Positions 53,400 to 55,211 of a stretch of 64,000 nucleotides of DNA are shown one piece after another. The position numbers and the translations under genes were made by a program. The first letter of the stretch is position 1. Each line of letters begins with the position of its first letter. This stretch comes from Apteryx mantelli (Eukaryota), in the NCBI RefSeq assembly GCF_036417845.1, contig NC_090015.1:64001-128000 (forward strand), written 5' to 3'. The notes below the pieces were generated by a model. That model had not been told where the DNA came from, made no database searches, and saw nothing but the letters and a program-made list of their open reading frames with translations.

Positions 53400-53400
<1 letters not shown>

Positions 53401-55205
53401 CATTCCCATGTCCCCACGGCCGCGTCCCCCCGTCCCCCCGCGTCCGACGCCGGCGTCCCCGCGCAGGCATCACGTCCCTGTCCCCGTGGTCGTGTCCCCA
53501 TCCCCATGTCCCCATGGCTGCGTCCCCACGCTGGCGTCCATGTCCCCGGCCCCGCGTCCGATGCCGACGTCCCCGCGCAGGCATCACGTCCCTGTCCCCA
53601 TCCCCGCGTCCCCATGGCTGCGTCCCCACGCTTGCGTCCCCGTCCCTGCGGCCCCGCGTCCGACGCCGGTGTCCCTGCGCAGGCATCACGTCCCTGTCCC
53701 CGTGGTTGTGTCCCCATCCCCGTGTCCCCATGGCCGCGTCCCCCACGCTGACATCCCTGTCCCCGTGTCCCCGTCCCCGTGTCCCCACACTCGTATCTCT
53801 GTCCCCATCCCCGTGATCGTGTCCCCGTCCCTGTGTCCCCATCCCTGCGTCCCCACACTCGTATCTCTGTCCCCATCCCCGTGATCGTGACCATGTCCCC
53901 ATGGCCGTGTCCCCATGGCTGCATCCCCCCGCTCGCATCCCCATCCTTGTCCCCATGGCTGCGTCCCCACGCTGGCGTCCCCATCCCCACGTCCGACGCC
54001 AGCGTCCCTGCGCAGGCATCCGTGTCCCCATGGCCGCGTCCCCACGGCCGCGTCCCCACGCTGGTGTCCCCGCGTCTGACGCTGGCATCCCTGCGCAGGC
54101 ATCCCTGTCCTTCTCCAAGTGGTCGTGTCCCCATCCCCGTGTCCCCGTGGCCGCGTCCCCATGGCCACGTCCCCACGCTCGCATCCCCGTCCCTGTGGTC
54201 GTGTCCCCATCCCCGTGTCCCCAAGGCCATGTCCCCACGCTCGCATCCCTGTCCCCATCCCTGTGTCCCCATCCCTGTGTCCCCATCCCCGTGTCCCCGT
54301 GGCCACGTCCCCATGGCTTTGTCCCCACGCTCGCGTCCCCGTCCCCGCGTCCCCGTCCCCGCGTCCGACGCCGGCGTCCCCGCGCAGGCATCACGTCCCT
54401 GTCCCCGTGGTGGTGTCCCCATGGCCACGTCCCCATGGCTGCTTCCCCACGCTCACGTCCCCGTCCCTGTCCCCGTGGTCATGTCCCCATCCCCATGACC
54501 CTGTGGCTGCGTCCCTGCGCAGGCATCCCTGTCCCTGTCCCCGTGGCCGTGTCCCCATCCCCGCGCCCCCATGGCCACGTCCCCACGGCCGTGTCCCCAC
54601 ACTGGTGTCCCCGTCCCCACGGCCTCACATCCAACGCCGGCATCCCCACGTAGGCATCCCTGTCCCTCTCCCCGTGGTCGTGTCCCCATCCCCATGTCCC
54701 CATGGCTGCGTCCCCGTGGCTGCGTCCCCACGCTCGCATCCCTGTCCCCGTGGTCGTGTCCCCATCCCCATGTCCCCGTGGCCGCGTCCCCATCCCCGCG
54801 TCCCCATGGCTGCGTCCCCACGCTCACGTCCCCGTCCCCACGTCCCCGTCCCCACGCTGGCGTCCCCGCGTCTGATGCCGGCGTCCCCGCGCAGGCATCA
54901 CATCCCTGTCCCCATGGCCGCGTCCCCAAGGCCGCGTCCCCACGCTCGCGTCCCCGTCCCCGTGGTCGTGTCCCCATCCCCGTGTCCCCATGGCTTTGTC
55001 CCCACGCTCGCGTCCCTGTCCCCGTGGTCATGTCCCCATCCCCGCGTCCCCACGCTGGCGTCCCCGTCCCCCCGCGTCCGACGCCGGCGTCCCCGCGCAG
55101 GCATCCCTGTCCTTCTCCCCGTGGTCGTGTCCCCATTCCCGCGTCCCCACGCTCGCGTCCCCGTCCCCGCGTCCCCGCGTGCCCGCGTCCGACGCCGGCG
55201 TCCCC
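53400..55205. repeat. ~105-140-bp tandem repeat whose unit contains a copy of the ALDOA exon-7 acceptor and the first exon nucleotides (ccccgcgcag|gcatcacgtccctgtcc)
   Basis: cgcaggcatc at about 53466, 53579, 53678, 54012, 54098, 54384, 54520, 54890 and 55097; the genuine acceptor is at 55203-55211. Confidence 0.85.
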
Positions 55206-55211
55206 GCGCAG

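Follow-up and report, generated by a model that had tools for sequence, protein, structure and literature searches.

Copies of the exon-7 splice acceptor in intron 6 of kiwi ALDOA and their probable origin by exon stuttering

Introduction

The gene for fructose-bisphosphate aldolase A (ALDOA) of the North Island brown kiwi, Apteryx mantelli, lies complete and on the + strand in the 64,000-nucleotide stretch of contig NC_090015.1 analyzed here (the window, numbered from its first letter), where it has eight coding exons and introns that are all GT-AG. Its intron 6 carries ten upstream copies of the 3' splice site of exon 7, nine of them ending in CAG and one in TAG. This array is quite probably the outcome of exon stuttering in the kiwi lineage, a mutational by-product and not an adaptation, with the authentic site apparently being chosen by exon definition.

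Exon stuttering, or sequence stuttering, was described on the dot chromosomes of chicken, where it affects 115 genes and 236 introns, with 1-44 copies, exon parts of 20-187 nt and spans of 112-23,555 bp (Hron et al., 2026, Genome Biol Evol 18:evag038, PMC12954441). The supplementary gene list of that study includes chicken ALDOA (chr38) and its neighbour PPP4C. The process was described only in chicken and was called unreported in any other vertebrate species, and the word splicing does not occur in the paper, which contains no splicing analysis (PMC12954441).

Results

Ten copies of the exon-7 acceptor

The spliced open reading frame (ORF) of the kiwi gene encodes 364 aa and is 100% identical to XP_067170996.1 (aldolase A, North Island brown kiwi), which identifies the repeated junction as that of coding exon 7 of 8, as a first-pass annotation of the window had proposed, and which means that the annotated mRNA uses the authentic exon 6/exon 7 junction. 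The same annotation had claimed about ten decoy copies of this acceptor in intron 6, and the ten that were found are far above shuffle expectation. The sequence CCCNGCGCAGGCATC occurs exactly ten times between 53457 and 55216, the real junction included, with one additional copy at 54644 that has two mismatches; when up to two mismatches are allowed the whole window contains 12 matches, compared with 1.7 expected, and none of 100 shuffles reached 12. The 43-nt junction segment CGTCCGACGCCGGCGTCCCCGCGCAG/GCATCACGTCCCTGTCC (a slash marks the splice junction) is found at six places with at most three mismatches, where 0 are expected. The units are as follows, each decoy with the position of its first exon-like base in parentheses and with identity to the real site given over positions -30..+5.

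55182..55228, + strand: authentic acceptor unit, with an A at 55192 (-20) in the palindrome GACGCCGGCGTC, a C-rich tract and CAG/G; exon 7 runs from 55212
53437..53483, + strand: decoy 1 (53467), 35/35, long form GCATCACGTCCCTGTCC, 1745 nt upstream of the real site, frame +2
53551..53597, + strand: decoy 2 (53581), 33/35, long exon-like form, frame +2
53653..53699, + strand: decoy 3 (53683), 33/35, long form, ccctgcgcag variant, frame +2
53986..54020, + strand: decoy 4 (54016), 32/35, exon-like part only GCATC, frame +2
54069..54110, + strand: decoy 5 (54099), 31/35, short form GCATCCCTGTCC, in frame, +371 aa
54358..54404, + strand: decoy 6 (54388), 35/35, 23-mer of the real site, long form, frame +2
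54504..54534, + strand: decoy 7 (54523), partial, about 19 nt upstream shared, without the GAC element, frame +2
54624..54665, + strand: decoy 8 (54654), decayed, 28/35, cacgTAG/G, in frame, +186 aa
54865..54911, + strand: decoy 9 (54895), 33/35, long form, 317 nt upstream of the real site, frame +2
55071..55112, + strand: decoy 10 (55101), 35/35, 23-mer of the real site, 111 nt upstream of the real site, in frame

All ten copies extend from -30 on the intron side to +9 or +17 on the exon side (decoy 7 in part), and the AG is kept in every one. Identity is complete in three decoys (53467, 54388 and 55101), which therefore also share the 23-mer from -20 to +3 with the real site, so that any model of the MaxEnt type must score them the same as the real site. 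Five of the ten copies carry the 17-mer GCATCAC[G/A]TCCCTGTCC, the long exon-like form, with 14-15 of its 17 exon bases matching, while the other five have GCATCC...; exact exon identity ends at +9 and from +10 the copies carry the satellite motif GTCCCTGTCC. The near-identity to the real junction that had been proposed is therefore complete over the 35 positions for three copies, but on the exon side it is short and the long form is limited to half of them. Copies are present at the nine positions that had been listed, although the TAG copy at 54654 had been missed.

A branch-point-like element, C[CT][GA]A[CT]GC, places its A at -20, the same distance from the AG in nine of the ten copies, and this is the only branch-point-like adenosine near the AG. 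Missing branch points, raised in the first-pass annotation as a way in which the decoys might prove inferior, are not apparent in most of the array, where the branch-point-like GAC at -20 is retained in 9/10. Variants of the element are tctgAc in decoy 5, which matches yUnAy, and tctgAt in decoy 9. The tract before the AG, scored over 17 nt (about -20 to -4), is indeed C-rich, as had been noted, but polypyrimidine-like is too generous a description in that it has many G, is 59% pyrimidine with a single T, and is weak, the real site included.

Architecture of intron 6

Intron 6 is a GTCCCC-type minisatellite with 46% C in a region of 65-72% GC that is wholly repetitive. Arrays detected by Tandem Repeats Finder, with periods of 14-373 nt, span most of it (about 52250 to 55209), and it contains only 19 AG dinucleotides, of which 11 lie within the acceptor unit. 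Two sub-arrays can be distinguished.

52340..53389, + strand: decoy-free intronic sub-array ("intron stuttering"), 128/256-bp period, 0 acceptor copies
53420..55211, + strand: decoy-bearing sub-array, disordered stutter with motifs of 14-100 nt

Neighbouring acceptor copies in the second sub-array are 83-333 nt apart, and the array stops at the boundary of exon 7, which is intact. A higher-order repeat unit was considered and rejected, as self-alignment gave only about 70% identity at many offsets and no clean block duplication. The array also does not belong to the NAGNAG class of closely spaced tandem acceptors, in which the AGs lie 3 to about 12 nt apart in one unit, because of the 83-333 nt spacing and because nine of the ten copies have their own branch-point-like element.

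Two strong acceptor-like sites in the decoy-free sub-array, at 52349 (gtgtccccag/GGC, 7.5 bits) and 53095 (ttgtccccag/GGC, 8.5 bits), outscore the authentic exon-7 acceptor (3.5) and resemble the genuine acceptors of exons 4 and 6.

Origin and decay of the copies

The ALDOA loci of swan, a parrot, emu, rhea and ostrich were compared with that of kiwi. The start of exon 7, GCATCACGTTCCTGTC, is conserved in emu, ostrich and swan, with GGATCAC at this position in rhea and parrot. Homology to kiwi in swan and the other palaeognaths also covers the last 26 or so bases of intron 6, where a yyGAcG element sits at about -20. No copies of the exon-7 acceptor were found in the ALDOA loci of any of these five birds. 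In ostrich, intron 6 is only 91 nt and repeat-free, and in emu (1870 nt) and swan (1584 nt) the GTCCCC-type satellite is present with 0 acceptor copies. Because the exon start is conserved and the copies are missing in five birds, the exon side is ancestral and the copies derived and lineage-specific, which supports the proposal that the array arose from a duplicated intron/exon boundary.

In emu, rhea and ostrich, AGGCATC repeats follow ALDOA; they were examined as possible acceptor copies and rejected, as they belong to the unrelated G-rich GGGGCCCAGGCGTCCGGG satellite.

Over -30..+5 the nine full decoys differ from the real site at 20 positions in total, all of them transitions, with 17 at CpGs of the real sequence and none at the AG. 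This pattern is consistent with neutral CpG decay from a source that would have been identical to the authentic site. Some of the C-to-T changes give the tract an extra U (-7) or convert the branch-point ccgAc to cugAc (-22), and CpG decay thus tends to strengthen the mimics instead of weakening them. That emu has no copies and that three copies are identical to the source suggests that the array is recent.

The proposed mechanism begins with a piece of about 46 nt across the intron 6/exon 7 boundary, consisting of the 30-nt intron end (branch-point-like GAC, C-tract and CAG) and the first 9-17 nt of the exon, which would have been drawn into an expanding C-rich intronic minisatellite and would then have spread with it to ten copies over 1.75 kb. 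The joint was probably formed where exon positions +8..+16 (GTTCCTGTC) resemble the satellite motif GTCCCTGTCC, which itself occurs six times elsewhere in the kiwi satellite and ten times in emu intron 6; this likeness points to slippage or unequal exchange at microhomology. The copies would afterwards simply have decayed by CpG deamination.

In a junction-based screen of six ALDOA loci, the exon-7 acceptor was the only kiwi site copied across an exon boundary. Other boundaries are copied in other birds. Emu (locus L003, GCA_036370855.1 CM072418.1, 3196-4382) has in intron 1 seven tandem copies of the end of exon 1 with its GTGAGG donor, each with the last 73-84 nt or so of the exon, at 96.6-100% identity over 88 nt (five of the seven at 100%) and with 165-218 nt spacing, and these are decoy 5' splice sites with substantial exon sequence. 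In song sparrow (locus L006, GCA_035770615.1, 63900-65000), an ALDOA-like intron 6 is built largely of stuttered exon ends, with three copies of the 3' end of exon 6 and its donor (64091, 64262 and 64413) and three of the exon-7 acceptor with about 75 nt of exon (64456, 64606 and 64766), the real one being at 64956; copies of the exon-4 end and exon-6 start are also found at 61545-61643 and 63623-63679.

The array is thus nothing special to the exon-7 junction, as other ALDOA boundaries have been copied in the same way in emu and song sparrow and the process has been described in chicken.

Relation to exon stuttering in chicken

The kiwi array resembles the chicken cases in that an exon edge and its splice site are copied in imperfect tandem into the adjacent, repeat-filled intron, with the exon intact, the source at the exon border and the repeats confined between exons. 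Its ten copies and 1.75-kb span are inside the chicken ranges (1-44 copies, 112-23,555 bp), and a purely intronic stutter adjoins the exon-derived one, as in chicken PHF8 intron 18. All of the structural criteria of Hron et al. (2026) that can be read from the kiwi sequence were found in the array except for the threshold of their screen, and the kiwi differs from the described cases in being a palaeognath. The screen used exon-only BLASTn hits of at least 20 nt and a bit score of at least 42.1, and the kiwi copies do not pass it, as they contain no more than 17 nt of exon; when 15 nt of the flanking intron are included they score 40-56 bits. The 20-nt minimum sets what the screen can detect and is not a property of the process.

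An artefact of assembly, caused by a GC-rich repeat that is hard to sequence, is a very unlikely explanation of the array or of its copy number. The composition and entirely repetitive nature of the region fit such a possibility, and some of the local variation in introns of this type can be technical (PMC12954441). However, the copies differ by specific CpG transitions and are irregularly spaced, which is not what collapse or expansion of a perfect repeat would leave. The exons are undamaged and yield the RefSeq protein on translation, equivalent structures are present in the independent emu and sparrow assemblies, and in chicken the tandem-repeat structure of the PHF8 introns was verified with raw nanopore reads (PMC12954441).

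The kiwi array, with the emu and song sparrow copies, extends to palaeognaths and a passerine a process that was described in 2026 in chicken only. That one gene is affected in kiwi, emu and song sparrow, at exon edges that differ, suggests that the process is general to these bird chromosomes, and also that screens demanding at least 20 nt of exon miss cases. A broader generalization is speculative and rather doubtful, namely that exon stuttering in dot-chromosome genes is pan-avian and older than the palaeognath/neognath split, that ALDOA is a recurrent hot spot, and that the kiwi mimics impose a measurable splicing cost or regulation. If this were true, the boundary of ALDOA that was struck would have differed among kiwi, emu, sparrow and chicken, and the splicing cost could take the form of intron 6 retention, decay-sensitive junctions, inclusion of a 127-nt pseudo-exon (54523-54649) or a +37-aa isoform from 55101. 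The strengthening of decoys by CpG decay would then mean a conflict that grows with time in a highly expressed glycolytic gene.

Splice-site strength and choice of the authentic acceptor

With a crude matrix, the authentic exon-7 acceptor scores 3.5 bits and is one of the two weakest of the gene, five of the six other acceptors having 6.4-10.2. Nine of the ten decoys score equal to or above it, with the highest decoy score (5.1) at 54523. Hence, where a comparison of scores had been suggested as a test of the decoys, local criteria do not place them below the real site. Each is a complete 3' splice-site module at the local level that equals or slightly exceeds the weak authentic site, with almost no exon attached.

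RNA accessibility was considered as the discriminator and rejected. Local folding with two window sizes predicted that the real site and nearly all decoys are equally buried, with P(unpaired, -20..+3) of 1e-9 to 1e-15, and that only the decayed 54654 copy is more open.

Local signals cannot discriminate the real site from the decoys, and it is the context that differs. The 60 nt that follow the decoys have a purine fraction of 0.25-0.35, 0 GAR motifs and 7-11 CCC, compared with 0.57, five GAR motifs and 0 CCC in the first 60 nt of real exon 7, which contains the purine-rich run AGAGCGAGGAGGAGG at 55236-55250. The exon is 200 nt when the authentic site is used and would be 311-1945 nt with a decoy. 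Among the donor-like sites of intron 6 the highest score is 4.3, while six of the seven real donors have 5.9-12.3, and G-runs begin 7 nt after the exon-7 donor. It therefore appears from the sequence that the authentic site would be picked by exon definition, through a purine- and GAR-rich exon body, a donor 200 nt downstream and the G-runs beyond it, whereas the satellite that follows each decoy is rich in CCC, lacks GAR motifs and offers only poor donors.

Pseudo-acceptors and cryptic 3' splice sites in vertebrate introns are ignored when they lack an exon-definition context, and discrimination is attributed to exonic enhancers and silencers and a paired donor. The kiwi copies match the consensus as ordinary pseudo-acceptors do, but the latter are chance matches while the kiwi copies are literal copies of the authentic site, identical over up to -30..+9. 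In the reported work of Reed and Maniatis in 1986, engineered duplicate splice sites were placed in cis competition, and the amount of attached exon and proximity are said to have influenced the choice. Compared with such engineered duplications, the kiwi array is natural and tenfold, its units lie 83-333 nt apart, and its host is a GC-rich bird gene. As exact copies of a weak authentic acceptor remove local site strength as an explanation of acceptor choice, the locus constitutes a natural cis-competition series of identical 3' splice sites and a test of exon context in acceptor choice.

Several points weigh against exon stuttering with choice by exon definition. The exon part of the kiwi copies, 9-17 nt, is below the 20-nt limit of the chicken screen, and the placement of kiwi ALDOA on a dot-type chromosome would follow from ALDOA-PPP4C synteny only. 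The splice-site scores are from crude matrices and not from MaxEntScan, so that of the comparisons of strength only the 23-mer identity is rigorous. The real exon-4 donor (1.4) scores below several intronic GT sites, which makes it unsafe to argue that there are no usable donors in the satellite. In addition, the exon that would result from decoy 55101 is, at 311 nt, inside the usual range for exon definition, and as this decoy is in frame and free of stops, nonsense-mediated decay could not hide its use.

The TAG variant of decoy 8, ccccacGTAGgcatc, creates the best donor-like site of intron 6, CAC/gtaggc at 54650. Together with the acceptor of decoy 54523 it forms a candidate frame-shifting pseudo-exon of 127 nt (54523-54649), and this is the only candidate unit in intron 6 with both splice sites.

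The decoys could instead be functional, in that non-productive engagement of U2AF/U2, or a poison pseudo-exon, would slow the removal of intron 6 and tune ALDOA expression by intron retention or nonsense-mediated decay. Decoy exons of this type are documented for human introns of more than 1 kb, where they promote intron retention, as experiments with reporters and antisense oligonucleotides demonstrated (Parra et al., 2018, PMC6097662; Parra et al., 2020, PMC7373989). The kiwi intron is likewise over 1 kb and its splice-site-like elements, each decoy being a full module of branch point, tract and AG as good as the weak real acceptor, could engage the terminal sites unproductively; the candidate 127-nt pseudo-exon combines the best decoy acceptor with the CAC/gtaggc donor. 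The Parra decoys, however, are exons with both splice sites, while the kiwi copies are acceptor-only, unconserved and known here from sequence. They are missing from emu, rhea, ostrich, swan and parrot, their substitutions resemble neutral CpG decay, no transcript evidence for their function was found, and the copying of different boundaries in different birds and in hundreds of chicken introns fits mutation over selection. A functional role is accordingly considered to be improbable.

Predicted consequences of decoy use

It can fairly be inferred from the copies that the spliceosome would have to discriminate the real acceptor from the mimics, as had been argued in the first-pass annotation. 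The associated claim that use of a decoy would shift the frame applies to seven of the ten, but not to 54099, 54654 and 55101. In those seven, a stop is reached 152-1595 nt before the last junction (152 nt for decoy 9), which makes the transcripts eligible for nonsense-mediated decay, and any residual decoy use would mostly be expected to yield such transcripts. The three decoys that are in frame have no stop and would add 371 aa (54099), 186 aa (54654) and 37 aa (55101), the last of these having the pyrimidine tract CCTTCTCCCC following its site.

These three in-frame and stop-free decoys might suggest that the copies are real alternative acceptors that give rise to ALDOA isoforms with an inserted peptide, such as the +37 aa from 55101, and one stuttered copy of exon 7 is taken as an extra exon in the NCBI song sparrow model P0135, in which ITFLSGGQ... 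occurs twice. The sparrow model may be an annotation artefact, however, and in kiwi the RefSeq protein has the canonical length of 364 aa. A search with the predicted 37-aa insertion found 0 proteins that contain it in 5.8 billion protein clusters, the best matches aligning with a gap across it, although this is a weak negative in that kiwi RNA is perhaps not represented. The insertion would also lie inside the conserved aldolase fold, where it would presumably be harmful. The alternative-isoform explanation is therefore regarded as highly improbable.

The ALDOA gene and its surroundings

The exons that together give the spliced ORF of XP_067170996.1, and the two introns that flank exon 7, are located as follows.

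43387-43498, + strand: ALDOA exon 1
46589-46800, + strand: ALDOA exon 2
49172-49226, + strand: ALDOA exon 3
50852-51012, + strand: ALDOA exon 4
51867-51950, + strand: ALDOA exon 5
52028-52202, + strand: ALDOA exon 6, donor CCG/gtgagc at 52203
52203-55211, + strand: intron 6, 3009 nt
55212-55411, + strand: ALDOA exon 7, 200 nt, phase 1, donor CTG/gtacgt at 55412
55412-58767, + strand: intron 7, with a G-rich 33-mer array inside
58768-58863, + strand: ALDOA exon 8

The next gene downstream, close to ALDOA and with the same orientation, is PPP4C, which starts at 61095; the two are neighbours on chicken chr38 as well. The window as a whole is very GC- and satellite-rich. Upstream of ALDOA, a 58-bp satellite with the motif GGGGCCCAGGCGTCCGGG is present in about 510 copies (77% GC, 1-29795), and GGGGCCCAGGCGTCCGGG arrays are found just downstream of ALDOA in emu (L003, 16000-16900), rhea (L004, 13800-14650) and ostrich (L005, 12765-14830). 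Rfam at gathering thresholds gave 0 matches in the whole window, and Pfam found nothing in ten long ORFs at 31.7-41.0 kb, upstream of ALDOA, which are probably GC-rich noise.

Two other splice sites of the gene were noted. The exon-4 donor, CAG/gtccct at 51013, is a very poor match to the consensus (1.4 bits) and is needed for the conserved ...CQQ/NGIVP... junction. The exon-2 acceptor, gcgtccccggcgcag/GCAGCATC (46565-46600), is closely similar to that of exon 7, gcgtccccgcgcag/GCATCAC, with one mismatch to the 15-nt exon-7 acceptor pattern; these two acceptors are the weakest of the gene with the crude matrix, and each splits a GGC glycine codon in phase 1.

The G-rich 33-mer array of intron 7 has about 48 copies, extends from 55440 to at least 57000, and is partly complementary to the intron 6 satellite. 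Exon 7 is thus flanked by inverted satellites (C-rich, 52203-55211; G-rich, 55412-58767) in which 339 pairs of complementary segments (16-46 nt) were counted, and the longest 25 of these measure 22-46 nt with 70-91% complementarity. Pairing of introns 6 and 7 across exon 7 would be possible in the pre-mRNA, as with the inverted repeats that flank circularised or skipped exons. Every 33-mer of intron 7 between 55440 and 57000 also contains TTG/GTAGGA, a moderate 5' splice-site-like sequence, so that dozens of these follow shortly after the real exon-7 donor. They come from the repeat unit and not from exon-boundary copying, as no boundary-crossing copies were found.

The ALDOA "isoform X1" models of black swan (P0001) and penguin (P0006) have an insertion of 26-27 aa. 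A link of these insertions to intron 6 was rejected, since they result from retention and translation of intron 5, a short intron (77 nt in kiwi) that is in frame and free of stops. C-rich introns of birds can in this way read through as open frames and then be annotated as coding.

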